Below, piece after piece: positions 1 through 15,331 of a stretch of 15,331 nucleotides of DNA. Each line of letters starts with the position of its first letter. The first letter of the stretch is position 1. The stretch comes from a virus (taxonomy: Duplodnaviria; Heunggongvirae; Uroviricota; Caudoviricetes): the IMG/VR virus record IMGVR_UViG_2718218172_000006, one strand, 5' to 3'. The notes beneath the pieces are model-generated. The model was given only the letters and a program-made list of their open reading frames with translations, searched no databases and was not told the DNA's origin. Both the position numbers and the translations under genes were made by a program.

Positions 1-987
1 TCACTTATTAAAATGCCCCCAACGGAAATACATGTCACATGCCATCATAAAATCGTTATGCCAGAGGCATCGACAATGGAAAAAATAGTAAATTAAGCAC
101 GGTACATAGCAGAGTAAAAAATAGGCTTCAAACCAAATCCGCCATTCCACAAGCGTTGCCAATACCGACACCAGCGTAATCCACATCATTTCAATAACCA
201 GCAATATGAATAACCGAAGCCAAAGCGGCTTGGCAAAAAAGGTCGACAACGCATTTTCACTGGAGAAAAACAGATCGATTTCCTGCAAAAAAAGCCTGCC
301 CAGAAAAGCGTACCGCTTGGAGAAGCGCAGAAAAAACAGATTAATCGCCAACACTACGCCACAAAGAATGAGCAATGCAATTATCGATTTAAACGTTAAC
401 CACTGCCCCTCTGTCACAAAAGAATCACTGTTACGTAACGGGCTGATAGTAAGCAGGTTAACAACCGTTGAGATGCACACCGAAAGCAGCACATAGCGAG
501 TCAGACTTTTATATTTTACTTTTTTCGCTACTGAAATAGCGACCTGCTTGACATAACTGGTGCGGATCATCCGAAACAGCAGAAAGATGACCAACGGCCC
601 AAGTAACGAAATCAGGAACAGCGCATATAACGAGGGTAGAAGCTGGTATAGCCCCCAACTCATTGCACTCAACATGATTAACGACAGAAATCCTGCCACC
701 AGAGGTTGTGTAAGAAATAATTCTATTTTGTGGTTCTGCTTTTTCTTAAACCACGAAAAATCGATATTCTTCGTGACGCATTTATAAGCCCAGTACGCCT
801 TGAGATCAAAAATAAAATTATACAGCACCAGGGCCAGAATCCCACTAACGACACCAATATCCTCTGATGGAAAAGTAAATCCTGCATTTTTCCAATAAAA
901 GCCTATCAGAATAAGTCCAATAGCATAAATGTATATCAGATTTCGTTTATCCTGAAAGCGAATAAAAGTTAAATAATCAGGAATCAT
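1..987 (-). CDS. polytopic integral membrane protein, function unknown (328 aa)
   Basis: Complete ORF in the six-frame track with stop at 1-3. Its ATG overlaps the stop of the upstream acyltransferase fragment (ATGA-type coupling at 984-987). The translation is long hydrophobic stretches separated by K/R-rich loops, with A+T-rich codon usage. Family not recognisable by eye. Confidence 0.55.
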
Positions 988-1512
988 TTGAATACCTTTG
1001 CATCACTAAATGCTTTACGACAATGCATAACTCGTTGCTGATCCACGCCAGCAAAATCATTTAACATATTCCCCAAATAGGGCTTATTACTTATTTCAAG
1101 GAAAGCTACCGGGGTTGGCATATTCAGAAATGTATCGAGAGATTCAGTCCATTTCACCGTATGGGTTAAGTGTAATGAGAGATTTTCTTTGATAATTGAC
1201 GGAGCGACCTCGCTTTTTGCTGTTACGTTCATCAGAACCTGATGCTCTGGCGAAGCGATATCCAGTCCGGCAAGATAATCGCGCATTGCCTGAACGCCGT
1301 CTTCCATCAAACGCGTGTGCCAGGCACCGCTCACACCGAGTTTAACCGGTTCGTATCCAGCGGCCATCAGCAGCGTGGCAAATTCATTCAACGAGGCCTG
1401 CGTTCCCCCAATAACCTGCTGGCGCGGCGTGTTATCACAGCTAATATCCAGCGCAATGCCTGATTCCGTAATCATCGTCTGCAGTTGTTCGCGGTTGATG
1501 CCTTTAACCGCC
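984..1512 (-). pseudogene. FabD-like malonyl-CoA:ACP transacylase, C-terminal fragment truncated by IS3
   Basis: The 163-aa track ORF (984-1475) resembles the C-terminal half of FabD-type acyltransferases (GVSGAWHTRLMEDG, VKWTESL). My manual translation shows the frame stays open upstream of the annotated Met as far as the IS3 end at 1513, where the first in-frame stop lies inside the IS. The N-terminal half of a normal ~300-aa enzyme is absent. Confidence 0.6.
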
Positions 1513-1577
1513 TGATCTTACCCAGCAATAGTGGACACGCGGCTAAGTGAGTAAACTCTCAGTCAGAGGTGACTCAC

Positions 1578-1877
1578 ATGACAAAAACAGTATCAACCAG
1601 TAAAAAACCCCGTAAACAGCATTCGCCTGAATTTCGCAGTGAAGCCCTGAAGCTTGCTGAACGCATCGGTGTTACTGCCGCAGCCCGTGAACTCAGCCTG
1701 TATGAATCACAACTCTACAACTGGCGCAGTAAACAGCAAAATCAGCAGACGTCTTCTGAACGTGAACTGGAGATGTCTACCGAGATTGCACGTCTCAAAC
1801 GCCAGCTGGCAGAACGGGATGAAGAGCTGGCTATCCTCCAAAAGGCCGCGACATACTTCGCGAAGCGCCTGAAATGA
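1578..1877 (+). CDS. insE: IS3 transposase OrfA (InsE-like)
   Basis: Track ORF 1569-1877 begins at a GTG; the likely true start is the ATG at 1578, giving [31 protein letters not shown]..., 99 aa. This matches IS3 OrfA as I remember it. Confidence 0.88.
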
Positions 1878-2136
1878 AGTATGTCTTTATTGAAAAACAT
1901 CAGGCTGAGTTCAGCATCAAAGCAATGTGCCGCGTGCTCCGGGTGGCCCGCAGCGGCTGGTATACGTGGTGTCAGCGGCGGACAAGGATAAGCACGCGTC
2001 AGCAGTTCCGCCAACACTGCGACAGCGTTGTCCTCGCGGCTTTTACCCGGTCAAAACAGCGTTACGGTGCCCCACGCCTGACGGATGAACTGCGTGCTCA
2101 GGGTTACCCCTTTAACGTAAAAACCGTGGCGGCAAG
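1874..2136 (+). CDS. insF: IS3 transposase OrfB (InsF-like), N-terminal part only
   Basis: Track ORF 1874-2257 ([32 protein letters not shown]...) overlaps the orfA stop in the -1 frame (ATGA), as in IS3 family elements. The translation becomes X from 2137 because of the N-run, so only the N-terminal part is real sequence. Confidence 0.82.
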
Positions 2137-2236: not shown

Positions 2237-2505
2237 CACTACAGCAGAGCCATGTAGACAACATCCCCTCCCCCTTTCCACCGCGTCAGACGCCCGTAGC
2301 AGCCCGCTACGGGCTTTTTCATGCCCTGCCCTAGCGTCCAAGCCTCACGGCCGCGCTCGGCCTCTCTGGCGGCCTTCTGGCGCTCCTGCTGCGGCGTCCG
2401 CTCGTGGGCCGTGGCGCGGGTCCGCGCGCCGGCCTCGTGCGCCTGGCGCTCGCGGGCGAGGTCCAGGGCGGCCGTCTTCACGTTCTGCCTTGCGCAGATG
2501 AGATA
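2237..2505. other. G+C-rich flank outside the transposon terminal repeat (probably plasmid backbone)
   Basis: Visibly G+C-rich sequence outside the 38-bp IR. The four overlapping track ORFs here are most likely chance frames. Part of it (…CGCCCGTAGCAGCCCGCTACGGGCTTTTTCATGCCCTGCCCTAGCGTCC…) reminds me of broad-host-range plasmid backbone sequence; this is unverified. Confidence 0.3.
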
Positions 2506-2543
2506 GGGGAGCCCGCAGAACTCGGAAAAAATCGTACGCTAAG
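2506..2543. repeat. 38-bp terminal inverted repeat of a Tn21-family transposon (tnpA end)
   Basis: GGGGAGCCCGCAGAACTCGGAAAAAATCGTACGCTAAG at 2506-2543, close to the Tn501/Tn1721-type IR as I remember it. The tnpA stop codon (2539-2541) lies inside it, as is typical for this family. Confidence 0.8.
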
Positions 2544-5505
2544 GTTTTCCGAGCTGCCGCAGCGGCCTGAATTTCCCGTCTTCCAGCTTGCGGCTTTGCC
2601 GCCAAACGTAATCGCCGGTCAGGTTGATGTGCTCCCAGCCCAATGGCGAAAGGTATTGCAGTAACTCAGGATTAACTGGCTTGCCTGCCTCTTCTCGGGC
2701 CTGGGTCGCGCGCTCCAAGTACACGGTGTTCCACAACACGATGGCGGCCGTCACCAGGTTGAGGCCGCTGGCCCGGTAGCGCTGCTGCTCGAAACTCCGA
2801 TCCCTGATCTCGCCGAGGCGGTTGAAGAACACCGCCCTGGCCAGGGAGTTACGCGCCTCGCCCTTGTTCAATCCGGCATGCACGCGGCGACGCAGTTCCA
2901 CGCTTTGCAGCCAATCGAGGATGAACAGCGTGCGCTCGATCCGACCCAGCTCGCGCAGAGCCACGGCCAGGCCGTTCTGGCGCGGGTAGCTGCCAAGCTT
3001 GCGCAGCATCAGCGATGCGGTGACGGTGCCCTGCTTGATCGACGCGGCCAGCCGCAGAATCTCGTCCCAGTGAGCGCAGACGTGCTTGATGTTCAGGGTT
3101 CCGCCGAGCATTGGACGCAGCGTCGGGTAGTCTTGGACGCTATTGGGCACATACAACTTGGTTTCACCGAGGTCGCGGATGCGCGGCGCGAAGCGGAAGC
3201 CCAGCAGGTGCATCAGGGCGAAGACGTGATCGGTGAAGCCAGCGGTGTCGGTGTAGTGCTCCTCGATCCGCAGATCGGACTCGTGGTACAGCAGACCGTC
3301 GAGCACGTAGGTGGAATCACGCACGCCTACATTCACCACGCGGGTGCTGAACGGCGCGTACTGGTCAGAGATGTGGGTGTAGAACAGCCGTCCTGGCTCG
3401 CTACCGTACTTCGGGTTGACGTGGCCGGTGCTCTCGCCTTTACCGCCGGCACGGAAACGCTGGCCATCGGAGGATGAGGTGGTGCCGTCACCCCAGTTGG
3501 CGGCGAAGGCATGCCGGAACTGGCTGTTGACCAGCTCGGCCAGGGCCGTCGAGTAGGTTTCGTCACGGATGTGCCAGGCTTGCAACCAGGACAGCTTGGC
3601 GTAGGTCATGCCCGGACTCGACTCGGCCATTTTGGTCAGGCCGAGGTTGATGGCATCGCCCAGGATCGCCGTTAGCAGTAGCGTCCGGTCTTTCGCCTGT
3701 GCGCCATCCTTCAGGTGCGTGAAGTGGCGGGTGAAGCCCGTCCATTCATCCACATCCATCAGCAGCTCGGTGATCTTGATGCGCGGCAGTAGCTGGCTGG
3801 TCTGGTCGATCAGCGCCTGCGCGGTGTTGGGCACCGCGGAATCCAGCGGGGTGATTTTTAGCCCGGACTCGGTGAGGATGGCATCGGGTAGTTCGTTGTC
3901 CTTTGCCAGTCGGGTGACAGTGGCCAGCTGCTCGTCCAGCAGCTGCAAACGCTCTTCCAGGTACTGGTCGCTGTTCGGGTTGATCGCGAGTGGCAGCGCC
4001 TGTTCCCGCTTGAGTGCGGCGAATTTCTCGGGAGGCAGTAGGTAGTCATCGAAGTCGCGGAACTGCCGCGAGCCTTTGACCCAGATGTCGCCGGAGCGCA
4101 GCGCGTTCTTCAACTCGGACAAGGCGCAGATTTCGTAGAAGCGCCGGTCGATGCCTTCCGGGGTGATCACCAGCGGTTTCCAGCGCGGCTTGATGAAGGC
4201 GGTCGGTGCGTCGGAGGGCACCTTGCGCAGATTATCGGCATTCATCTCGCGTAGGGTCTGAACGGCATCCAGCACGGCTTGCGCTGCCGTCGCGGCTCGG
4301 AGCTGAAGCACCTCCAGAAAGGCTGGGGTGTAGCGGCGTAGCGTAGCGAAGTTCTCGCTGACCAGGTGCAGGTGGTCGAAGGCTTCCGGCCGGGCCAGCA
4401 GCTCGGCCTCAGTGACACTCTGGGTGAACTCGTCCCAGGGAATGACCGCCTCGATGGCGGCGAACGGATCGTCACCGGACTCTTTAGCGTCCAGCAGGGC
4501 CTGGCCGATCTTCGAGTACAGGCGCACCTTGTCATTGATCGCTTTGCCCTGCTTCTGGAACTGCTGCTGATGCTTGTGTTTCGCGCCACTGAACAGCTTG
4601 ACCAGGATGCGGTCGTGCAGATCAACCAGTTCATCGATCACGGTCGCGGTGCTTTCCAGTACCACGGCGACCAGCGTGGCATAGCGCCTCTCCGGTTCGA
4701 ACTTGCCGAGGTCTTGTGGCGTCATCTGCCCGCCCTCGCGGGCGAGCTTCAGCAATCGGTTCTGGTGGATGTGCCGGCCGAGGCTGTCGGGAAGGCCCAC
4801 CAGTTGGAAAATCTTCAGCCGCTCGATGTGCTCGATCATGTGCCGCGAGTTCGGCTTCAGCGGTGATTGCCGCAACCAGGTCAACCAAGTGCTGTTGCTG
4901 CCGGCCTTAATGGTGAGCAGTTCGTCGAGCTTGGCGTGATGCGATGGGTTCAACGGCTCGATCAGGGCGCGATAGACCCGCCGATTGGCGCGTGCAATGG
5001 CCTCCGAACACGCCCGGTCAATAACGCTCAGCGTCGGCAGGATGCGCCGCTTCTGGCGCAAGCTCTCCAGCGCCTGCCCGGCCAGCAGCAAGCCCTTGTC
5101 GGTCTGCTGGGCCAGCTCGGTCAACTCGCGCACCAGGGCGCGGAAGTCCGACAGACCGAACGGGGCCAGTTGCAGGTAGGTGCGCAGTTCCAGAGCGTGC
5201 TCGCGGCGGGTCACGTCGCGCTCACCGTACTTCGCCCAACTCGCGGGGTCGGCTTGGACTTGCTTGGCCACCCACTGGATCACGGGCTCGGGTAGCGCCG
5301 TGTCGTTGCCCAGCGCATAACCAGGGTAGCGCAGCAGGCAGAGCTGCACGGCGAAGCCGAGGCGGTTGCCATCGCCCCGCCGTTGACGGATCAGGGATAG
5401 GTCGGAGTCGTTGAAGGTGTAGTAGCGGATCAGGTCATCCTGGCTTTCTGGCAGCGCAAGCAGGGTGTCGCGCTCCGTAGCCGAGAGAATCGAGCGACGC
5501 GGCAT
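2539..5505 (-). CDS. tnpA: Tn3-superfamily (Tn21 subgroup) transposase TnpA, 988 aa
   Basis: 988-aa ORF starting [37 protein letters not shown]..., with conserved blocks I recall from Tn21/Tn501 TnpA (e.g. [41 protein letters not shown]). Length matches the family. Confidence 0.95.
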
Positions 5506-5508
5506 GGT

Positions 5509-6069
5509 TCAGTCGTCCGTGCGAAGGTACTGGTAGAGGGTTTCACGGCTGATGCCGAACTCGCGTGCGAGCTGAGCCTTCGGCTCGCCGGCAGCGGCCC
5601 GCTGCCGCAACGTGATGGCTTGATCGTCGGAGAGAGCTTTCTTGCGGCCCCGGTAAGCACCGCGCTGCTTGGCCAGGGCGATGCCCTCGCGCTGCCGCTC
5701 GCGGATCAGGGCGCGCTCGAACTCGGCAAAGGCCCCCATGACCGACAACATGAGGTTGGCCATGGGCGAGTCCTCGCCGGTGAACACCAACCCCTCCTTC
5801 AAGAACTCGATGCGCACGCCGCGCTTGGTCAGCCTTTGCACCAGACGGCGCAGATCGTCGAGGTTGCGCGCCAGGCGATCCATGCTGTGCACCACCACGG
5901 TATCGCCTTCGCGGACGAATCCGAGCATGGCTTCCAGCTGCGGGCGCTGGGTGTCCTTGCCCGAGGCCTTGTCGGTGAACAGCTTGCCGATCTCGACCTG
6001 CTCAAGTTGGCGTTCCGGGTTCTGGTCGTAACTGCTGACCCGAACGTAACCGATGCGTTGTCCCTGCAA
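5509..6069 (-). CDS. tnpR: serine recombinase (resolvase) TnpR
   Basis: The track gives 5509-6123 (204 aa), but the conserved resolvase N-terminus starts at QGQRIGYVRVSS. A TTG at 6067-6069 is preceded by GGAGG, giving a ~186-aa protein typical of Tn501/Tn1721 TnpR. The start is uncertain; the ATG at 6123 is the alternative. It sits 3 bp upstream of tnpA on the same strand. Confidence 0.88.
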   Translation of the reverse strand: MQGQRIGYVRVSSYDQNPERQLEQVEIGKLFTDKASGKDTQRPQLEAMLGFVREGDTVVVHSMDRLARNLDDLRRLVQRLTKRGVRIEFLKEGLVFTGEDSPMANLMLSVMGAFAEFERALIRERQREGIALAKQRGAYRGRKKALSDDQAITLRQRAAAGEPKAQLAREFGISRETLYQYLRTDD

Positions 6070-6260
6070 GATGCCTCCATAGGCTGGATGGGCGGTAGGG
6101 CTTACGTTGGTTTTTGGTTCCATTGCGCCCTAAGCCTTGAATTTGTCAGGTTGGAATCTATGACCTTGGCAAGCATGTGTCAAAGAATGTGAAAGCAGAC
6201 TCTATTCTGACGGCGCAGTGTCGTTTTCAGAAGACGGCTGCACTGAACGTCAGAAGCCGA
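6070..6260. promoter_or_regulatory. res (resolution) site region and tnpR promoter, approximate extent
   Basis: By position: in Tn21-family elements the three-subsite res region lies immediately upstream of tnpR. Sequence shows repeated TGTCA-containing dyads (TGTCAGGTTGG…, CATGTGTCAAAG…). Sub-site boundaries not determined. Confidence 0.45.
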
Positions 6261-6502
6261 CTGCACTATAGCAGCGGAGGGGTTGGATCCATCAGGCAAC
6301 GACGGGCTGCTGCCGGCCATCAGCGGACGCAGGGAGGACTTTCCGCAACCGGCCGTTCGATGCGGCACCGATGGCCTTCGCGCAGGGGTAGTGAATCCGC
6401 CAGGATTGACTTGCGCTGCCCTACCTCTCACTAGTGAGGGGCGGCAGCGCATCAAGCGGTGAGCGCACTCCGGCACCGCCAACTTTCAGCACATGCGTGT
6501 AA

Positions 6503-6602
6503 NNNNNNNNNNNNNNNNNNNNNNNNNNNNNNNNNNNNNNNNNNNNNNNNNNNNNNNNNNNNNNNNNNNNNNNNNNNNNNNNNNNNNNNNNNNNNNNNNN
6601 NN
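6503..6602. other. assembly gap (100 N)
   Basis: Run of 100 n characters. Confidence 0.99.
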
Positions 6603-6607
6603 GTCTC

Positions 6608-6763
6608 TTACTCCTCAGGTTCGTAAGCTGTGAAGACAGCGACCTCCGTCTGGCCGGTTCGGATTCGTACCTCGCAGAGGTCTTTCCTCGTTACCAGTGC
6701 CGTCACTATGACGGTTAAACAGATGACGATCAGGGCGATTAACATCGCCTTTTGCTGCTTCAT
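6608..6763 (-). CDS. hokD: Hok/Gef-family small membrane toxin (HokD/RelF-like), 51 aa
   Basis: Not in the track (under 60 aa). My manual translation gives MKQQKAMLIALIVICLTVIVTALVTRKDLCEVRIRTGQTEVAVFTAYEPEE, stop at 6608-6610, with AGGAGA upstream of the ATG. It lies 71 bp downstream of relE, as in the relBEF locus. Confidence 0.85.
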   Translation of the reverse strand: MKQQKAMLIALIVICLTVIVTALVTRKDLCEVRIRTGQTEVAVFTAYEPEE

Positions 6764-6834
6764 AGCCTGCTTCTCCTGTCAACGCAAAGCAGAAGTGTCA
6801 CCTTCGGTGCGAAACAGAGATGTCATGCTTTGGT

Positions 6835-7122
6835 TCAGAGAATGCGTTTGACCGCCTCGCTATATACTTCCGAGCGTTCTCTTTTCCCAACAGAAATCAC
6901 GAAAACGACAACTTTCTCGTCTATAACCTGGTATACAAGGCGATAGCCTGAAGACCGGAGCTTAATCTTGTAACAATCAGGCATACCACGGAGCTTGTTT
7001 GCTTCAATCCGGGGTGACTCAAGTACTTCAACCAGCTTCTTTTTCAACTGTTCACGTACCGTCGAGCCCAGCTTTCGCCATTCCTTTAGTGCCCGCTCGT
7101 CAAAATCCAGAAAATACGCCAT
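6835..7122 (-). CDS. relE: RelE mRNA-interferase toxin (type II TA)
   Basis: 95-aa ORF MAYFLDFDERALKEWRKLGSTVREQLKKKLVEVLESPRIEANKLRGMPDCYKIKLRSSGYRLVYQVIDEKVVVFVISVGKRERSEVYSEAVKRIL, recognised as E. coli RelE. Confidence 0.95.
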   Translation of the reverse strand: MAYFLDFDERALKEWRKLGSTVREQLKKKLVEVLESPRIEANKLRGMPDCYKIKLRSSGYRLVYQVIDEKVVVFVISVGKRERSEVYSEAVKRIL

Positions 7123-7361
7123 CAGAGTTCATCCAGCGTCACACGTACTGGCTTAGGATTACGAAGCCGTTCTTTCACTATCTCCACAAGTTCAGCATCT
7201 TCATCACTCAGGAGTGTCTGTTTGAACGGCAAGCGTTCATTGTCAGCGATATACTCGAGCATGAGACGAAGCGCTTCAGAAGGAGTTACACCCATTTTTT
7301 CAAGCGCGGCGTAAGAACGCGCTTTAAGTTCATCGTCAATACGCAGGTTAATGCTACCCAT
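7122..7361 (-). CDS. relB: RelB antitoxin
   Basis: 79-aa ORF MGSINLRIDDELKARSYAALEKMGVTPSEALRLMLEYIADNERLPFKQTLLSDEDAELVEIVKERLRNPKPVRVTLDEL, recognised as E. coli RelB. It overlaps the relE start by 1 bp. Confidence 0.95.
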   Translation of the reverse strand: MGSINLRIDDELKARSYAALEKMGVTPSEALRLMLEYIADNERLPFKQTLLSDEDAELVEIVKERLRNPKPVRVTLDEL

Positions 7362-7425
7362 GTCTTACACCTCTTGTAATTACAAATGTCATTACAAGTA
7401 TCGCACTACAACATGCTTAGGGCAA
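7362..7425 (-). promoter_or_regulatory. relBE promoter/operator region (relO-like hexad repeats)
   Basis: Immediately upstream of relB the minus strand reads …TTGCCCTAAGCATGTTGTAGTGCGATACTTGTAATGACATTTGTAATTACAAGAGGTGTAAGAC-ATG. The palindromic TTGTAAT/ATTACAA repeats are consistent with the RelB-RelE operator. Confidence 0.55.
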
Positions 7426-7691
7426 GTCACGAAGGAAGTCAGAAAGTAGTCGTAAGAACGGTGATCACTGTCCGCTTTGTGCCAGGAGCAGCCATTGCTA
7501 AGTCCATCCTGTATTGTGCAGGTCAGCTCGTTTTTAAAGAGTCCGGCCATCATCTTACTGGTACAGACACCATATACTTTGTGACGGTCAGGCTACATAT
7601 GCACAACTCAACTTATTCATCTATTTTTTGCTTTAGCATGTCAGTGTTGCTTTCTCGTCGGCGGGTGAGCGGTGACCTGACCTGTCGATAA
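7386..7691 (+). CDS. ydfV: hypothetical protein (YdfV-like ORF), doubtful
   Basis: 101-aa track ORF between relB and flxA, the position and length of K-12 ydfV as I remember it. It overlaps the relBE promoter and has an odd composition, so it may not be a real gene. Confidence 0.3.
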   Translation: MSLQVSHYNMLRASHEGSQKVVVRTVITVRFVPGAAIAKSILYCAGQLVFKESGHHLTGTDTIYFVTVRLHMHNSTYSSIFCFSMSVLLSRRRVSGDLTCR

Positions 7692-7843
7692 AGGAACGTA
7701 ACACGTTTTATGCAACACCCGCATGCGGCAGAAAATTATTGCCGAACGTTTACCCCTGTCAACAAGCTTTACTTTCTGAGGCGCGCCAGCCCGCGAGGAA
7801 AACAATCTGAACATCAAACAATTAATGACACAAGAAATACGAT

Positions 7844-7870
7844 TAAAGATTTTTTTGTGCATGCCGATAG
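7844..7870 (+). promoter_or_regulatory. sigma-28 (FliA) class-3 flagellar promoter of flxA
   Basis: TAAAGATT (7844-7851), 11-nt spacer, GCCGATAG (7863-7870), against the sigma-28 consensus TAAAGTTT-N11-GCCGATAA. AAAGGAG ribosome-binding site at 7880-7886, ATG at 7894. Confidence 0.7.
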
Positions 7871-7893
7871 TGCTTTTTTAAAAGGAGAAATCT

Positions 7894-8226
7894 ATGTCTG
7901 TCACAATTCAGGGAAATACCTCAACCGTTATTTCAAACAACTCCGCCCCGGAAGGAACATCAGAAATAGCCAAAATCACAAGACAAATTCAGGTGCTGAC
8001 TGAAAAGCTTGGGAAAATCTCATCGGAAGAGGGGATGACGACACAGCAGAAAAAAGAAATGGCTGCATTGGTACAGAAGCAAATTGAAAGCCTCTGGGCT
8101 CAACTGGAGCAGTTGTTAAGGCAGCAGGCAGAGAAAAAGAATGAAGACGCGACAGTTCAGCCTGATAAAAAAGAAGAGAAAAAAGACGATACAAATACCG
8201 CTGGCACCATTGATATTTACGTCTAA
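7894..8226 (+). CDS. flxA: FlxA (FliA-regulated protein), 110 aa
   Basis: 110-aa ORF MSVTIQGNTSTVISNNSAPEGTSEIAKITRQIQVLTEKLG…, recognised as E. coli FlxA, with a sigma-28 promoter just upstream. Confidence 0.85.
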   Translation: MSVTIQGNTSTVISNNSAPEGTSEIAKITRQIQVLTEKLGKISSEEGMTTQQKKEMAALVQKQIESLWAQLEQLLRQQAEKKNEDATVQPDKKEEKKDDTNTAGTIDIYV

Positions 8227-8240
8227 GTGACAGCCGTATT

Positions 8241-8264
8241 GTGGCCCTCATCGGGCCACTTTTC
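8241..8264 (+). terminator. intrinsic terminator downstream of flxA
   Basis: GTGGCCC-tcatc-GGGCCAC (7-bp perfect stem) followed by TTTTCGCC, 15 nt after the flxA stop. Confidence 0.6.
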
Positions 8265-8313
8265 GCCATCAGCCTTTTCTTTAAAGACATATTATCTTTG
8301 TATCATTTCTGAT

Positions 8314-10162
8314 AGTTAACATTACAAGATATAAGTAATGGACGCACTCCCAATTAGTCTATTTAAATCGCCACGAGTTTAACTGACAACCCATGATCAA
8401 TTATGAATTGCAACTATTTCTGTAGTCACTTTTGTGGGGACAGTCCACAAAACTGCCAACTTCCGCTTCTTGCTCTTAGCGGACATTAGCATAGGCTATT
8501 TACCATAACGCCTCATTACGCGCACCGCCCAGACTGACTCAGCGCGTTTCTGGCATATCCCCGGTAAAACAAGTAACAAACCACCCGAAAATGAACACCA
8601 GAAACGCGACTTAAGAATCTACCCTATGAATGGATATGCACTCAACCGAATCGATCTTGGTTTCAATCTTTTTTATCGGGATCAGGCTTCTTTTTAGGTA
8701 ACTTCGGGGGCTTAACTTGCTGATGACTTTGCGTTCGGCGCGTAAGCCAGGGATGGTCAGCTTTAGGTTTAACATAGTATTTTGAGCGTAAATCAATACG
8801 GGCATTATCCACTCGTTCATGGACACTCTTTTCATCATCCAGTGGTATAGGCTCCGGGCCATCAACATACTTTTCCCAGCCCAGCGCTTTCCCGTCATAC
8901 AGAACGTTAATTTCACCGTCAAAGTTCTCGCATACAGTAACAACCGAATGCCTAAGTCGATATCCCCGGCCCTCACTGCGTACCTGAAACGCACTGCTTT
9001 TGTACTGGAAAGTGAGATTTTTAGACAGAACGCGCTTCGCCTGTAGGCTGAAGATATAACCCAGTTCCTCTTCAGAATGGTGCACATCAAGATGAGCATT
9101 ATCAGTAGTACGAGGCGACGTAGCGAACCGGTTGTTATAGGCTTCAATAAAGGTCGGCAACCATGCATTTGCTGTTTCAATATCACTGATATTCTGAAGC
9201 CGCATTTCTTTGACCAGCCTGTCCTGTAGTGTCTGATTGGCGCGCTCTACCCGCCCTTTTGCCTGCGGGCTGTTGGCATGGATTGGCTCGATGCCCAGTG
9301 TCTTTATCGCACGAGTGAACTGGGTCAGCTCACCTTCCCGCTCTGGGTTATTTACCCTGAATATACTGTGTCTATCAGAGTAGAGAGCGAGCGGTACGCC
9401 ATGATCATTAAGGTAACCCCGGAGGGTTTCCATGTAAGCCCGGGTTGTTTCAGCAGGCACAAAACGCAACGCCATCAACGCACTGGTGGCATCATCAATG
9501 AAAACGATCAGTGTACATCTGGGGCCTCGATTTTCAAACCAGTCATGAGGTGAGCCATCAATCTGGATCAGTTCACCGTAAGATGGTCGTCGCATGCGGC
9601 GTTGATATATACGGGCAATTTTACGACGGCGTTCACGCCATAACCCCTCTTCTATCATCCACTTTCTGAGAGTTTCAACGGATAAAGATAAACCGTGTAT
9701 CTCGCGCAATTTTTCGCACGCAAACGTAGGTCCAAAATCAGCGTAACGGCCTTTGAGGAGTGAAATTACTGTTGCTCTGAATTCAGTAGAAAAGGAATTA
9801 TTAGGACGCTTTCCACGTCGGTGGGAAACCAGACCAGAAGGCCCTTCATTTCTATACCGTTGCACCAGACGTTTAACCTGCCGAATAGAAATGCCAATGC
9901 GTGCCGCAGCTTGTTCCTGAATAATCTGAAGTCGGTGGAGTTCCTTATGACTCATCGTAACAGTCTCTTTGATCATGAAAAATCCCCCAGAGAATTGTCT
10001 GGGGACATTTTAGAATGGTTCAAAGGGGACATTACAGCTTGGTGTTAACAATAGCCTGCTTCTCCGTGCCTTTCGGCACGTAAGAGGCTAACCTACATGT
10101 GTCTAGCATGAAATTGGCCTCAGATTAATGTTAAGCGTCTTGCAGGACGCGTAATGTTAACT
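8314..10162 (-). mobile_element. insertion sequence carrying the DDE transposase; ends uncertain
   Basis: The only candidate terminal repeats I could find by eye are a perfect 12-bp inverted pair, AGTTAACATTAC at 8314-8325 and GTAATGTTAACT at 10151-10162. The true ends may lie inside this span. No target-site duplication identified. Confidence 0.3.
8663..9976 (-). CDS. DDE transposase, rve/integrase-core type (IS481- or ISNCY-like), 437 aa
   Basis: 437-aa ORF with an N-terminal helix-turn-helix region (IGISIRQVKRLVQRYRNEG) and a D…D…E arrangement typical of rve-fold transposases (LIQIDGSPHDW … LALYSDRHSIF … KGRVERANQTLQ). Lysine-rich C-terminal tail. Exact IS family not identified. Confidence 0.8.
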   Translation of the reverse strand: MIKETVTMSHKELHRLQIIQEQAAARIGISIRQVKRLVQRYRNEGPSGLVSHRRGKRPNNSFSTEFRATVISLLKGRYADFGPTFACEKLREIHGLSLSVETLRKWMIEEGLWRERRRKIARIYQRRMRRPSYGELIQIDGSPHDWFENRGPRCTLIVFIDDATSALMALRFVPAETTRAYMETLRGYLNDHGVPLALYSDRHSIFRVNNPEREGELTQFTRAIKTLGIEPIHANSPQAKGRVERANQTLQDRLVKEMRLQNISDIETANAWLPTFIEAYNNRFATSPRTTDNAHLDVHHSEEELGYIFSLQAKRVLSKNLTFQYKSSAFQVRSEGRGYRLRHSVVTVCENFDGEINVLYDGKALGWEKYVDGPEPIPLDDEKSVHERVDNARIDLRSKYYVKPKADHPWLTRRTQSHQQVKPPKLPKKKPDPDKKD

Positions 10163-10310
10163 GGGGCTTTTCTCTATCTGCCGTTGGTGTCCATGCCCGA
10201 GGCAGATAGCCTCAAGCACCCGCAGTCATTCTACTTAACTAAGATTTCCCCGCAAACCGTTTTTGTCCAGCACAGTAAATATCCAACTAAACCAATGGAG
10301 TTCGCTGTAT

Positions 10311-10490
10311 TTACCGCCAGTATTCAATGCACATGACCGCCATGAACACCCCTAAAAAAAGGGCATTTATATATCCAAATATTAATATCAAAACATCAAC
10401 TTTTTCCATATACCTTGCTGTGAAGATGATGGGCATACATGATGCGAACAACCAGAACGCAACAAACAAAAACTGCAATGCGTTTTTCAT
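10311..10490 (-). CDS. small two-helix membrane protein, 59 aa (track ORF 10311-10529 trimmed to the ATG with a ribosome-binding site)
   Basis: ATG at 10488-10490 is preceded by GTAGGAGGAATA-ATG, a near-consensus Shine-Dalgarno. Product MKNALQFLFVAFWLFASCMPIIFTARYMEKVDVLILIFGYINALFLGVFMAVMCIEYWR has two hydrophobic helices. No family recognised. Confidence 0.5.
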   Translation of the reverse strand: MKNALQFLFVAFWLFASCMPIIFTARYMEKVDVLILIFGYINALFLGVFMAVMCIEYWR

Positions 10491-10674
10491 TATTCCTCCT
10501 ACAATCAATGTGCAATTACATTTAAACACACCTCAATTTGGCCGGACATATAAATATCTAAACCAGAAAAAATCACTTACATAGCGTTACAAACTCTTTA
10601 GTCTAAAGGTTCATCGTAAAACATTCCCCATACTTATCAGTCCGTTCCGCGCCAGGTAGCTCATTGCCTTATCT

Positions 10675-10704
10675 GGCAACCTGTAATCAGGTTTCCGCTT
10701 TTTC
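10675..10704 (+). terminator. candidate intrinsic terminator (plus strand)
   Basis: GGCAACCTG-taat-CAGGTTTCC (9-bp stem, one mismatch) followed by GCTTTTT. No convincing plus-strand gene upstream, so the terminated transcript is unknown. Confidence 0.3.
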
Positions 10705-11642
10705 AGTTGGCTGGTCGTTTAACCGACATAGTTAATCCATTAATCTAGTTGCCGGATGTTGGTGGATTTTCGCGTTTTAGTTGTTCATAAAAGTGCACAG
10801 CTTTAACCAGTTCTTCTGATGTAACTGGGACTGGTGAGGCAGTGAATAAGGCCTGAATTTGATAGTTCGGCCTGTCGTTACAATCCTCTTTTTTCGGTAC
10901 ATATTTCCAGTCACCAGACCACTACTTCCCCTGAAAGTCCGTAACGCCTTTTTTCACGTAGCGATATCGCCATGCCACTGGTTTTGCTTGCCCCGCCGTT
11001 TCATGCCCTTCCTGATAATTAATCTCGCTCATTCATCGCCCCACTCATCACAATATGCTTCGACCGGAGTTTTTCCCGCTTCATAGTCATCACGCTAGGA
11101 TTCGACATCAGCAGCACTTCCACCGCGTAACTCACCATAGTCCATTAATAGTTCATCCCGCTCTTCAAAACTGATGTTATATTTAGCTGAACAAAAATCA
11201 GCCACTTTGTTCTTCCTCATCGTCTTTTATTTCGTGGTATGAGTAATTGCAGTAGTTAAAGAAAATTTCTTATGCTCCGTCATGAATTTCCTCAGGTGTT
11301 GCGTCATCGTCCACTTCGAATACATCCTCAAAATCTCCACCAGCTATTCCCGTTTCAATAATAATTTTGAACTTTCGCATTTCACTACCGCCCTTTCGGG
11401 CGGCCTCCTGATGTTCTGAGGGTGCAGAAATCCATCCGGTTAAGGATTAAATTTTATTTACAGAACTGAATTTAATTATTCAGATATACGTATCTGTAGC
11501 CTTACGAATCTACTCACTGGATGCCTCTTTCATAAAAATAATCCAGTGGGTTTTATCGTTTTTTCCCTGTTCGTTGACAGATAACAGGTTTTCTGTCTGT
11601 CAGTGCCAGAATCTGGCTTACCGGTATTTGCGTTTCATTCCA

Positions 11643-11999
11643 TTAAAAAATCAGAACGCCGTGCGGCCTCAACACCCGAAAGGCTTCTTTAAATCTCTGT
11701 CGCGAATCATCACGCCAGGCATCTTTATTCAGCCGTCCATATTTCTTTCCCATCCAGGCGTTATCACCAACACTCTCAAGATGCGGAGGGTCTAATACAA
11801 CCATCGAAAAAGATGCGTCTGCAAATGATAATGCACGAAAATCTGCGATAATGTCAGGGCTGATAATCAAGCGTCTCCCATTGCGTAATGTGTATCCTTC
11901 TTTTCTGATATCGCTGAATATCGCCCGTTCGTCAGACTTATCGAACCAGAACATGCGGCTGCCACAGCACATATCAAGAATGGTTGCCGGTGCACTCAC
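11643..11999 (-). CDS. DNA N6-adenine methyltransferase-like protein, short (118 aa), possibly truncated
   Basis: An N-terminal SAM-binding-like motif (LDMCCGSRMFWFDK) is followed by a DPPH motif (VVLDPPHLE), resembling the DPPY/DPPW catalytic motif of amino-methyltransferases. The GTG start overlaps the stop of the upstream gene by 4 bp. The frame stays open for 29 more codons beyond the TAA stop, suggesting a nonsense mutation or an unusually short enzyme. Confidence 0.5.
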   Translation of the reverse strand: MSAPATILDMCCGSRMFWFDKSDERAIFSDIRKEGYTLRNGRRLIISPDIIADFRALSFADASFSMVVLDPPHLESVGDNAWMGKKYGRLNKDAWRDDSRQRFKEAFRVLRPHGVLIF

Positions 12000-12418
12000 T
12001 GCGCCACGTCCTGAAAATTACCCTGATAGAAAGCCAGTATGCGCTGCATAACTTCGCTCTTCCGGCACTCGCGACAGATTATGTTTAGGCGACTGTCGTA
12101 GCGACGTATTTCTCCGTCAGGTGATGACCAGATAAGGTCCGGATCAACCACAGCAGGTTTCTTCACCTTTGCCCTCGAGAGTTTTTTGCGGGCGTTTTGC
12201 CAGTCCTTACGCGCCTGTTCAGAGGGGAATAACCCGTAGCCGGAGTTGTATACATCGCCACTGGCTACCAGCTCTCTGGCAAGAACGCTCATCAGATATC
12301 TAGTCGCACCTGTTTTAGCTTCCAGTTGCCGTAACGTCTCACGGCCGCTCTGGCGCACGAGTTCCACCACCTGCCATTTAATTTTTTCCCGCTCTTCTTG
12401 TGTAAAAACTTTTGCCAC
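11996..12418 (-). CDS. hypothetical prophage protein with a putative helix-turn-helix (140 aa)
   Basis: 140-aa track ORF with a GTG start. It has an HTH-like segment (ETLRQLEAKTGATRYLMSVLAREL) and a basic central region, and is translationally coupled to the downstream methyltransferase-like gene. Family not recognised. Confidence 0.55.
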   Translation of the reverse strand: MAKVFTQEEREKIKWQVVELVRQSGRETLRQLEAKTGATRYLMSVLARELVASGDVYNSGYGLFPSEQARKDWQNARKKLSRAKVKKPAVVDPDLIWSSPDGEIRRYDSRLNIICRECRKSEVMQRILAFYQGNFQDVAQ

Positions 12419-12458
12419 AAGTCCCCCTTAAAATTACCTCATGACCTGAAATCAACAC

Positions 12459-13424
12459 TTATCCTCTGAAACCAGGCGGAATTTCTGTATCCGGTTCAGA
12501 AATATGATTAACACAACGCTGTACAGGTGAACGTCCCAGGCGGATGACCAGTTCGTCCCATTTTTCGCGGAGCTTTGACGGGCTCATGATGTTTTTTACC
12601 CAGAATGGATCTCGCTGAACCCGACCAAACATTTCGCAAATTTGTCTGTGGCTTCTGCCATCCAGCATCCGCATTGTGCGCACGTCATTGGCCCAGGCAG
12701 TCCAGTTAGGCTCTTTTGGTCGCATGATCTCGCCATCATCACTGGCTGCCTGTTCGTAGAGACCCACGATCCGCCCCCAGATCCACTGCGCACACGCCAA
12801 ATCCTCCCTGCTACCCCACTGGCGTTTTTTCGCACTAAACACAACCGCGTCGGAGTTCCGGGTTAAAAAATCCTGTTCAGTCGTCTGCGGGTCCGGTTGC
12901 GAAGCTTCCGGACGAAAAGTGTTTTTATTCTCTGTAGTAATCTCTGTTGTATTCTCTGTAAGATCATCAGGCCATTTTGACCCGATGACATTGGGTCGTT
13001 TTGAACCAATGGAGCGTTTCATTTTGACCTCTTCCATCGTGTCATTTTGACCTGATGGAGCGGCGCATTTTGAACCGATGGATTCGCTCAATTTGCCACC
13101 ATCTAAAAGCTCGCTCCCATAGTTGATCGTGTAGAAATTGGTCATATCGCGCTTTGATTTATTGAGCTTTTCACAACGCAAAAGCCCCAGCGTTTTCAGA
13201 CTTGCAAACGCGCGCTTTAACGTTGACTCTGACCAGAATGGGAACTGTTCCAGCCATTGTTCCGTTGTGTTATAAATCCAGCGAACACCATCACATTCCA
13301 TGCCGGAGTTGGTATCTCTCAACCAGTAGTGCAGTTGTTGCAAAACAATGGCTTCGTTTAAGCCAATTTTCATTGCCAGCTGCGTGTTTATAACCAGTGG
13401 GCGTTCAGCAAAAAGAAGGCTCAT
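12459..13424 (-). CDS. lambda O-like replication initiator (replisome organiser) with an embedded candidate origin
   Basis: Track ORF 12459-13478 trimmed to the first ATG (13422-13424). It sits where a lambdoid O gene would, downstream of the Cro-like dicC. The N-terminal region looks like a DNA-binding domain, and the central linker is encoded by five direct DNA repeats followed by an A+T-rich stretch, as in ori-lambda. This is a functional inference; similarity not verified. Confidence 0.6.
   Translation of the reverse strand: MSLLFAERPLVINTQLAMKIGLNEAIVLQQLHYWLRDTNSGMECDGVRWIYNTTEQWLEQFPFWSESTLKRAFASLKTLGLLRCEKLNKSKRDMTNFYTINYGSELLDGGKLSESIGSKCAAPSGQNDTMEEVKMKRSIGSKRPNVIGSKWPDDLTENTTEITTENKNTFRPEASQPDPQTTEQDFLTRNSDAVVFSAKKRQWGSREDLACAQWIWGRIVGLYEQAASDDGEIMRPKEPNWTAWANDVRTMRMLDGRSHRQICEMFGRVQRDPFWVKNIMSPSKLREKWDELVIRLGRSPVQRCVNHISEPDTEIPPGFRG
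12973..13083. repeat. five iteron-like direct repeats (~23-bp period) inside the O-like gene
   Basis: Plus strand: cATTTTGACCCGATGaca (12973), cGTTTTGAACCAATGGAG (12997), tcATTTTGACCtcttcca (13019), tcATTTTGACCTGATGGAG (13042), gcATTTTGAACCGATGGAt (13065). The adjacent A+T-rich 12901-12960 contains ATTCTCTGTA twice. Confidence 0.6.
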
Positions 13425-13926
13425 AATTCCATCCAGCTTTTTGTTGGTATTGCTGTCGATACGCAAGTTTGAAAGCAATTGCTTTTTCTATAAGTTCGTC
13501 AGTTTCACGATCCACTACGGCAGGATCAGCAAAAAGCAGTCCGGACTCCACCACATCGCCATATTCTTTGTTTAACCCGGCGATCATGCACGTGATGCTT
13601 TTTCCGTCAGTAATTTCACGATACAACCTGAAATCATTAATCCGGATAGCCTCCATAATTGCAGGCACTAGCGCCGTGAACTTTTCACGCTTATCCCTGG
13701 TGTCGATAGCCTTCCAGCGTTCAAATATCTTCACTCGATTAACGCCAAGCGCTCGCTGATCAATCGCGCCACCTTCATATGTGACACGCTGAACATCGAT
13801 GTTCGGGCGCTCTTTCAAAGCCCAGAATGCTTCAGTGATTAATATCGTCGCCTGCTCCTGTGTCATTCCTGGTCGACATATCCAGGCATCCAGAGCCTCA
13901 CGAGCCTGTTCAGGAGTGATTTTCAT
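13405..13926 (-). CDS. hypothetical prophage early protein (173 aa)
   Basis: 173-aa ORF starting at ATG 13924-13926. It overlaps the dicC stop by 17 bp and the O-like gene start by ~20 bp. It sits where a lambdoid cII-like gene would; no family recognised. Confidence 0.5.
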   Translation of the reverse strand: MKITPEQAREALDAWICRPGMTQEQATILITEAFWALKERPNIDVQRVTYEGGAIDQRALGVNRVKIFERWKAIDTRDKREKFTALVPAIMEAIRINDFRLYREITDGKSITCMIAGLNKEYGDVVESGLLFADPAVVDRETDELIEKAIAFKLAYRQQYQQKAGWNYEPSFC

Positions 13927-14140
13927 TGTTCAACCGCCCCGCCCGCTTCGTCTTACGATATTCATCATAAACTTTGGGATCATACTGAAGCTCCCCGCCA
14001 GATGCCTCCTGTAGACGCATCGCGCGACCTTCGGGAACTAAATCCCCTTTCCAGCTATAAAGCGAAGCCAAACGAATACCTGCTGCTTGTGCAAGTTTTG
14101 TTTTTGAACCGAAATACAAAAGAGCGTCAGTTTTAAGCAT
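13910..14140 (-). CDS. dicC: DicC (Cro-like repressor), 76 aa
   Basis: 76-aa ORF MLKTDALLYFGSKTKLAQAAGIRLASLYSWKGDLVPEGRAMRLQEASGG…, transcribed divergently from dicA. Recognised as E. coli DicC; length matches. Confidence 0.88.
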   Translation of the reverse strand: MLKTDALLYFGSKTKLAQAAGIRLASLYSWKGDLVPEGRAMRLQEASGGELQYDPKVYDEYRKTKRAGRLNNENHS

Positions 14141-14223
14141 TTAAAACACCTTTATTGTTAGTCATAACTAACAAGATAGATGTTAACAAAAACATAGTCA
14201 ATACGATTTAGCATTAGCTAACT
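14141..14223. promoter_or_regulatory. dicA/dicC divergent promoter-operator region
   Basis: An 83-bp intergenic region contains a 20-bp palindrome TTGTTAGT-cata-ACTAACAA (14155-14174) with perfect 8-bp arms, TGTTAACA (14181-14188), and TTAGC-atta-GCTAA (14208-14221) overlapping the dicA start. Confidence 0.65.
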
Positions 14224-14631
14224 ATGGAAACAAAAAATTTAACTATCGGCGAACGCATCAGGTATCGTCGGAAAAACCTCAAACACACCCAAAGGTCTCT
14301 TGCTAAAGCCCTGAAAATCTCCCATGTGTCTGTATCACAATGGGAACGGGGTGATAGTGAACCTACAGGGAAGAACCTTTTTGCCCTCAGCAAAGTATTG
14401 CAATGCTCACCAACATGGATTCTATTTGGCGATGAAGACAAGCAACCAACACCACCTGTTGAGAAGCCAGTTGCCTTATCCCCCAAAGAACTAGAGCTCC
14501 TTGAGCTGTTTAATGCACTGCCAGAATCAGAACAGGATACCCAGCTCGCCGAAATGCGAGCTCGAGTAAAAAACTTCAATAAACTCTTTGAAGAATTACT
14601 AAAAGCCCGTCAGCGGACAAATAAAAGATAA
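14224..14631 (+). CDS. dicA: DicA (XRE/cI-type HTH repressor), 135 aa
   Basis: 135-aa ORF METKNLTIGERIRYRRKNLKHTQRSLAKALKISHVSVSQWERGDSEPTGKNLFALSKVLQCSPTWILF…, recognised as E. coli DicA; HTH_XRE motif evident. Confidence 0.95.
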   Translation: METKNLTIGERIRYRRKNLKHTQRSLAKALKISHVSVSQWERGDSEPTGKNLFALSKVLQCSPTWILFGDEDKQPTPPVEKPVALSPKELELLELFNALPESEQDTQLAEMRARVKNFNKLFEELLKARQRTNKR

Positions 14632-14659
14632 CATCATCAATGAGTTATCTTTTACCACA

Positions 14660-14725
14660 TCAATTATGTTAGCTATAGCATACAAAATAACTTGACCGAT
14701 ATGTTAGTCATGGCTAATCTTGTTT
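14660..14725 (+). promoter_or_regulatory. candidate dicB-operon promoter with operator half-sites
   Basis: TTGACC (14692-14697), 17-nt spacer, TAATCT (14715-14720). GTTAGT/GTTAGC motifs related to the dicA/dicC operator half-site sit at ~14666-14681 and 14703-14718, overlapping the spacer. Confidence 0.5.
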
Positions 14726-14797
14726 GCATCAACACACCGCACGGTGTTCTCAGCAAACAGTTCCGCTACCCCAGCGTTAAGGGGAAATGAGGTCAGC

Positions 14798-14953
14798 ATG
14801 GATACTATCGATCTTGGCAACAACGAATCTCTGGTGTACGGCGTGTTTCCAAACCAGGACGGCACGTTCACCGCAATGACGTATACCAAAAGCAAAACGT
14901 TTAAAACCGAAAATGGTGCCCGTCGCTGGCTGGAAAGAAACTCAGGTGAGTGA
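14798..14953 (+). CDS. ydfA: YdfA, 51 aa
   Basis: Track ORF 14720-14953 trimmed to the internal ATG at 14798, which is preceded by AAGGGGAAATGAGG. Product MDTIDLGNNESLVYGVFPNQDGTFTAMTYTKSKTFKTENGARRWLERNSGE matches K-12 YdfA in sequence and length as I recall it. Confidence 0.8.
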   Translation: MDTIDLGNNESLVYGVFPNQDGTFTAMTYTKSKTFKTENGARRWLERNSGE

Positions 14954-14954
14954 T

Positions 14955-15083
14955 ATGGATTTCGACACAATCATGGAAAAGGCTTACGAAGAATACTTCG
15001 AAGGCCTTGCCGAAGGCGAAGAAGCTCTCAGCTTCAGTGAGTTTAAACAGGCGCTTTCCAGTTCGGCAAAATCTAACGGCTGA
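14955..15083 (+). CDS. ydfB: YdfB, 42 aa
   Basis: Not in the track (under 60 aa). ATG at 14955 is preceded by AGGTGAG; product MDFDTIMEKAYEEYFEGLAEGEEALSFSEFKQALSSSAKSNG, stop at 15081-15083. Position and length match K-12 ydfB. Confidence 0.7.
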   Translation: MDFDTIMEKAYEEYFEGLAEGEEALSFSEFKQALSSSAKSNG

Positions 15084-15112
15084 TAAGCGAAACAGCACCG
15101 CGAGGAATCAGT

Positions 15113-15331
15113 ATGCAGAAACGAGAACCCGTCATCATCGCGCCAGACTATACCGATGATGAACTTTATGAGTGGATGCGCCAGAAAATTAATGCAGCGC
15201 AGGATCTGAAATGGGCTAATGAAGCCAGGGCTAAGCAGGCTGAAAATCTGTCCGCTCTGGAGCAGGATATCACCAATCTGGAAAAAGCAGCGGCATTAAG
15301 CATTGCCAGAATGATTACATACCCGCGTTAG
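15113..15331 (+). CDS. ydfC: YdfC, 72 aa
   Basis: 72-aa ORF MQKREPVIIAPDYTDDELYEWMRQKINAAQDLKWANEARAKQAENLSALEQDITNLEKAAALSIARMITYPR, with GAGGA upstream and a stop at 15329-15331, the last codon of the window. Confidence 0.8.
   Translation: MQKREPVIIAPDYTDDELYEWMRQKINAAQDLKWANEARAKQAENLSALEQDITNLEKAAALSIARMITYPR

Follow-up and report, generated by a model that had tools for sequence, protein, structure and literature searches.

Nested IS3 junction alleles, an acyltransferase remnant and an intact ycdU at the ymdE/ycdU locus of Escherichia coli

When a FabD-like reading frame runs straight into the end of an insertion sequence, is it a gene split by that element, with its other half just beyond, or what is left of something larger? 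The question is raised by the first 1,512 nt of a 15,331-nt stretch of DNA recorded as a virus (IMG/VR record IMGVR_UViG_2718218172_000006), which was analysed as a whole and is referred to as the window. The window contains two runs of N, each of exactly 100 (2137–2236 and 6503–6602), and is a scaffold of three unlinked contigs, the pieces of which are non-adjacent in complete genomes; in strain cq9, the first and the third piece are ~600 kb apart. Beyond the first gap (2137–2236) stands a Tn3-family element, not IS3, that is unlinked to the ycdU locus, and the IS3 is here a mere break point of a short-read contig. The nearness of the ycdU locus to a Tn3-family/integron fragment in this scaffold is thus not real linkage.

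The first piece (1–2136), comprising ycdU, a remnant of ymdE and part of an IS3, matches many E. coli chromosomes with 100% identity, and its features are therefore not due to chance. The annotated order in strain C8 is serX tRNA, RtT, ycdU, an incomplete ACP S-malonyltransferase, IS3, dgcT and pgaABCD, and in the chromosomes that are 100% identical over 1–2136 the locus lies between serX-ghrA and IS3-dgcT-pgaABCD. Judged by these matches, the piece is the chromosomal ycdU/ymdE-remnant/IS3 junction of E. coli, reaching from the serX-ghrA side to the dgcT-pgaABCD side. The feature as such is already known, namely as the pseudogene ymdE (b1028), IS3D and ycdU (b1029), and the deleted DNA as O-island 47. 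Goldstone et al. (2016, PMC4951805) reported ymdE of MG1655 to be a pseudogene 'foreshortened by an IS3 element' and pointed to full-length homologues of 945 bp in other phylogroups, and the MG1655 coordinates of IS3D and ymdE have been published (PMC5635171). All that the present analysis adds is that, of two nested junction alleles, the window has the longer one. Taken as a whole, we regard it as highly probable that the piece represents the ymdE/ycdU locus with an IS3 and a 31,556-bp deletion, which left behind a dead acyltransferase remnant and the orphaned ycdU of a ~15-gene operon. Rfam and repeat scans of 1–2136 gave no matches. An RtT repeat region lies just beyond the left end of the window; the serX–ycdU interval contains four tandem RtT sRNA repeats in K-12 (L004 2310–2989) and one in C8 (L002 11672–11808).

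The acyltransferase remnant occupies positions 984–1512 on the minus strand and encodes residues 139–313 of a 313-aa FabD-like malonyl-CoA:ACP transacylase plus the stop codon, as determined by translation, matches to the Acyl_transf_1 and fabD profiles and alignment to the uninterrupted allele of O157:H7 strain EDL933. The open frame (984–1514, minus strand) consists of one Q, 175 native residues and the stop. An earlier note on this DNA, according to which a FabD-like frame runs into the IS3 left end at 1513 with only the C-terminal ~175 codons left, was thus exact in its coordinates. The remnant matches positions 149–276 of Pfam Acyl_transf_1 (PF00698) with 27.7 bits, which is under the cut-off of 32.7 bits because only these profile positions are left, and positions 133–264 of TIGR00128 fabD with 70.5 bits (E 1.5e-19; equivalog cut-off 260.9 bits). 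The intact EDL933 allele reaches 87.5 bits with Acyl_transf_1, above the cut-off, and 178.7 bits with fabD, again under the equivalog cut-off. Neither copy thus reaches the fabD equivalog cut-off, and the protein is therefore a paralogue and not the housekeeping FabD. Over its full length, the intact protein aligns with FabD (1MLA, 2G2Z), PksC (5DZ6) and DisD (3RGI) at E-values of 1e-32 to 1e-22, with 1e-32 for Bacillus PksC 5DZ6 and 1.3e-22 for E. coli FabD 1MLA. It shares the GHSxG motif, the Arg and the downstream His with FabD and the trans-ATs, and its best matches are polyketide trans-ATs.

In the intact 313-aa protein, the nucleophile motif (GHSVG) is located at residues 95–99 and the aligned Arg in 'HFRASLM'. 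Unlike FabD and the trans-ATs, the window copy comprises the C-terminal 56% only and, as it begins at residue 139, has neither the GHSxG nucleophile nor the substrate-binding Arg; the downstream His (GAWHTR) is kept. An in-frame TAA derived from the IS3 end is located just upstream of the remnant, the junction itself offers no start codon, and translation could begin at the earliest from an ATG at 1475, which would give 163 aa. In a promoter/terminator scan of 1–2136, the minus strand showed no sigma-70-like site ahead of ymdE'/ycdU; the only sites were two weak ones inside ycdU, fewer than in shuffled sequences. Given the missing Ser nucleophile, Arg and junction start codon, together with the in-frame TAA from IS3, we conclude that the remnant is a dead pseudogene. 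PGAP labels it 'incomplete; missing N-terminus' in genomes with identical sequence, and in annotations the frame at 984–1512 should be named a pseudogene remnant, not an acyltransferase.

The second gene, ycdU (1–987, minus strand; ATG 985–987, stop 1–3), is the orthologue of b1029 and a complete open reading frame for a 328-aa polytopic inner-membrane protein. The encoded protein is 100% identical to NCBI 'protein YcdU' entries, and the gene is annotated as ycdU in the matching chromosomes. Its coupling to the acyltransferase frame by an ATGA overlap, as had been claimed, can be read directly from the sequence at 984–987 (minus strand), where the remnant stop (986–984) and the ycdU ATG (987–985) overlap, and the intact allele of EDL933 shows the same overlap of 4 nt. 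The description of the gene pair as A+T-rich applies mainly to ycdU, with a G+C content of 40.6%, and not to the remnant (47.6%) or the intact operon (49.3%).

The deletion/IS3 junction was placed by three-way alignment and exact flank mapping between the last chromosomal base at 1512 and the first IS3 base at 1513, where the left end of the element begins with TGATCTTACC... (in a longer reading TGATCTTACCCAGCAATAGTGGACACG...). The left 624 bp of IS3 (1513–2136, plus strand) include the left inverted repeat, orfA (1578–1877) and the start of orfB from 1874, and are identical to the IS3 of C8 at 624 of 624 positions. The terminal repeat starting with TG and the orfA/orfB pair with its programmed −1 frameshift place the element in IS3. 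The full-length IS3 copy used for comparison has 1,258 bp, ends with ...GATCA and carries the annotation 'IS3-like element IS3 family transposase, programmed frameshift'; that of the window is cut at 2136 by the 100-N gap, and its far end lies beyond the window. Because the contig of the isolate breaks at 2136, we infer the deletion from complete genomes with identical sequence. The right end of IS3 (...GGGTAGGATCA), followed by AAATGCCGCTTTATGG..., is the same in C8 and K-12, and the right flank corresponds in both to position 33949 of the EDL933 locus (L003), which is 10 bp past the dgcT stop codon. On the left side, the window and EDL933 are similar up to position 1512 and not beyond. The uninterrupted allele that had been sought was found in this strain, as a 313-aa gene overlapping ycdU by ATGA in a region that is 98.6% identical to window 1–1512. 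Relative to EDL933, the window type, as represented by C8, has its left junction at L003 2392 (window 1512), is flanked by GCC and AAA and misses 31,556 bp; K-12 has its left junction at L003 2207 (window 1327), is flanked by CAC and AAA and misses 31,741 bp.

These flanks bear on the reading as a simple IS3 insertion, in which the 5' half of the acyltransferase gene and the operon would lie just past the far IS3 end and a 3-bp duplication would flank the element. That the frame runs directly into the IS3 end is what such an insertion would look like, and the far end is not visible in the window. However, in the complete genomes identical over 1–2136 the far end adjoins the dgcT flank and the 5' half is absent. 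The 3-bp target duplication that the earlier note had anticipated at the far end is missing in every complete genome examined in detail, with GCC vs AAA in the window type and CAC vs AAA in K-12; flanks without a 3-bp match are what a deletion or a recombinant copy would show, not a fresh insertion. Moreover, among 5,426 complete genomes, a break-spanning query found the ymdE/ycdU locus at 2,634 places in 2,627 genomes. A split allele would give two places, so that there are at most about seven such alleles and simple insertions are very rare at most. We accordingly give a simple insertion almost no credence. The claim that an IS3 truncates the acyltransferase gene stands insofar as IS3 is located at the break, but 31,556 bp have been replaced, including the acyltransferase 5' half, and it is with this DNA that ycdU lost its upstream partners, as had been suspected.

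In the same sample, the uninterrupted acyltransferase gene is present in 390 of the 5,426 genomes and the exact window-type junction (1512) in 716, while the IS3/dgcT right junction was found in 2,299. Both left-junction types together account for 2,168–2,190 genomes, from which about 1,470 with the K-12-type junction (1327) result by subtraction. The 200-bp query for the K-12 junction is confounded, since its halves lie 185 bp apart in window-type genomes and get joined, and its count of 2,190 is the sum of both types. For typing, it is relevant that the IS3 junction exists in two or more nested alleles, the longer of which can be missed by pan-genome studies that assume the K-12 length. MG1655 has the same locus, gene remnant, IS3 copy, orientation and IS3/dgcT right junction as the window type, but only 113 acyltransferase residues survive in it compared to 175 in the window, the remnant of which is 185 bp longer.

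What distinguishes EDL933 is that it holds the 31.6 kb missing from the window. This DNA corresponds to the catalogued O-island 47 (OI-47; 31,727 bp, z1528–z1556; PMC8565820). In addition to the rest of a FAS/PKS-like and export operon, it contains a two-partner secretion pair, a fimbrial operon, grvA and an EAL-domain gene next to dgcT. OI-47 has been described as an island restricted to O157, O55 and O145, and this description, together with the small number of genomes that have the intact gene (390/5,426), would be in line with a short ancestral state, in which the island was inserted in the O157 lineage and K-12 and the window type never had it. Against this, the remnant is a truncated copy of a gene that stands in full length, with ycdU behind it, at the end of the same operon in other genera; no insertion could supply in frame the 138 N-terminal codons that the remnant lacks, and the IS end is located exactly at the break. 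An ancestral short state is thus very improbable. The opposite polarity is preferred, with an ancestral state, kept in O157:H7 as O-island 47, in which the gene for a 313-aa trans-acting malonyl-CoA:ACP transacylase and ycdU would have formed the end of a ~15-gene operon.

In EDL933, the genes of this operon are tightly packed on the same strand in the order holo-ACP synthase, SDR ketoreductase, FabZ/FabA-like dehydratase, ACP, GcvT-like aminomethyltransferase-family protein, 852-aa double ketosynthase, 407-aa ketosynthase, hypothetical protein, ABC ATPase, hypothetical protein, FtsX/MacB-type permease closest to LolC/E, LolA-like protein, 462-aa hypothetical protein, acyltransferase and YcdU. 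The two-gene operon that had been suggested for the window is therefore the 3' end of a larger conserved unit. The order from the double ketosynthase (KS-KS) through the acyltransferase to YcdU, with YcdU always last, is shared by Klebsiella oxytoca, Mixta intestinalis and a distant relative from a metagenome, identified by profile (E 8e-26), and the flanking genes differ at each of these three non-E. coli operon sites. According to the gene table and domain scans, co-linear KS, KR, DH, ACP, PPTase and AT genes are conserved across genera.

The gene content is that of a type II pathway of the fatty-acid/polyketide-like kind combined with a Lol-like export module, and from it we infer that the operon makes and exports some lipid or polyketide. 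An O-antigen or capsule locus, as guessed from the pairing of an acyltransferase with a membrane protein, is not what was found: the operon has KS, KR, DH, ACP, AcpS and a LolCDE/LolA-like exporter, and no glycosyltransferase, Wzx/Wzy or polysaccharide-export families were detected among the scanned operon proteins. None of the named cluster families compared with the operon reached its curated cut-off. A literature search on the product of the OI-47 operon retrieved no chemistry paper, only work on grvA regulation and phenotypes of island deletion. The operon is rare and, like the YcdU family, uncharacterised.

With regard to the origin of the deletion, the simplest reading is a single dgcT-adjacent IS3 with left-end deletions of differing length into the island. 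An IS3 copy would have been anchored 10 bp past the dgcT stop codon, and the 31,556 bp up to codon 138 of the acyltransferase gene would have been lost either by a second IS3 insertion followed by IS3–IS3 recombination or by a one-ended adjacent deletion. The sequence cannot separate these two routes. Adjacent deletions by IS3-family elements are commonly explained by a second nearby insertion and subsequent recombination between the copies, as in the case of IS150 and rbs; the IS150-mediated rbs deletions in long-term evolution lines are reportedly of the same adjacent-deletion kind. As a consequence of the deletion, ycdU, though still intact, has lost its promoter and all its pathway partners.

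The window-type and K-12 alleles would be nested products of the same anchored IS3. Between both types, IS3 differs by one mismatch in 1,258 bp and the right flank by one mismatch in the first 1.8 kb, whereas the left flank (window 1–1327) differs at 10 of 1,327 positions. Because the left flank diverges more than IS3 and the right flank, the left junctions may be independent or reshuffled by recombination and not successive steps; the K-12 junction could be derived from the window-type junction or have arisen independently. In a lab-evolved K-12 clone, 26,518 bp were lost from genome position 1,094,727, from ymdE through ycdU to pyrC, in a deletion labelled 'IS3-mediated' (PMC8611074), which fits the same IS3 copy still making leftward deletions. 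The deletions described here share with that of the clone and with those at rbs an anchored IS3-family copy, variable lengths from one end, a single IS left behind and no matching duplication. In contrast to these cases, they are of old date and have become fixed in natural lineages of large size (716 and about 1,470 genomes), and the presumed intermediate, with IS3 beside dgcT and the island still present, was found in none of the 5,426 complete genomes.

YcdU had no match in Pfam and NCBIfam searches, Acyl_transf_3 included, and ten distant relatives have no Pfam domain either; no solved structural relative of YcdU was found. Its homologues are from Enterobacterales (Enterobacter, Kosakonia, Mixta, Klebsiella and Pantoea), and in a profile search of 1.84 billion representatives the family amounted to 71 clusters at 50% identity. 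The AlphaFold model, based on an alignment of 35 sequences, is confident (pLDDT 89, pTM 0.85) and all-helical with about eight long helices, and the conserved polar residues are concentrated towards the C-terminus (W309, H310, C317, D318 and R322). At codons 304 and 307 (67–78), the window YcdU has His304 and Cys307, compared to Tyr304 and Phe307 in K-12 and EDL933; His304 is nearly invariant across the family. In one distant relative from the profile search (P0150, 398 aa), a C-terminal acyltransferase fragment (Acyl_transf_1 149–266) is joined with the C-terminal half of a YcdU-like protein; this was not accepted as a genuine AT-YcdU fusion, being probably a gene-call artefact or else another deletion at the same gene pair. 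Its constant position in the operon suggests that YcdU is a dedicated membrane component of the pathway.

In roughly 2,200 of the 5,426 complete genomes of E. coli, ycdU has been kept intact although the other pathway genes were deleted. Goldstone et al. (2016, PMC4951805) raised the possibility, for mastitis-associated phylogroup A strains, that the truncated ymdE product, or ymdE and ycdU together, keeps a selected function. Both genes belong to the core genome of mastitis strains (98.5% vs about 80%), and few further disabling mutations or frameshifts in ymdE as well as evidence of transcription in GEO were reported (PMC4951805). The intact ycdU, with six synonymous vs three non-synonymous codons among nine differences to K-12, could be seen in the same light, but these substitutions are too few for any conclusion on selection. 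A retained function is further at odds with the remnant's missing catalytic Ser, Arg and junction start codon and with the lack of a promoter-like site upstream on the minus strand in the scan of 1–2136. The RNA-seq counts of ycdU in K-12 are very low (53–64; PMC10294691), and a later study states in its title that there is no evidence for a mastitis pathotype. A selected function of the truncated ymdE, alone or with ycdU, is thus unlikely, and we retain the reading of a dead remnant beside an orphaned ycdU. It is a little less doubtful, though still speculative, that the retention of ycdU reflects a function independent of the operon, such as one behind the mastitis enrichment, and that the nested junctions mark a stepwise, ongoing erosion.

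In the scaffold, piece 2 (2237–6502) is a Tn3-family element with tnpA (2539–5505, minus strand) and a resolvase gene (5509–6123, minus strand), followed by the start of intI1, the integrase gene of class 1 integrons. With ISPa40-type copies on plasmids of Pseudomonas putida and Stutzerimonas it shares 99.9% identity, whereas among complete E. coli genomes its best matches over the full length (TnAs1/Tn21-like) reach only 88.8%, which makes it an unusual Tn3-family variant for E. coli. Piece 3 (6603–15331) is a lambdoid/Qin-type prophage segment with dicA, a ydaT-family toxin gene, DUF977 and an ISNCY transposase gene, and is 100% identical to several E. coli chromosomes. Within this prophage piece, a match to the sok antitoxin RNA (Rfam RF01794, 104 bits, E 3.6e-23) at 10050–10221 on the minus strand suggests a hok/sok-type toxin-antitoxin locus.
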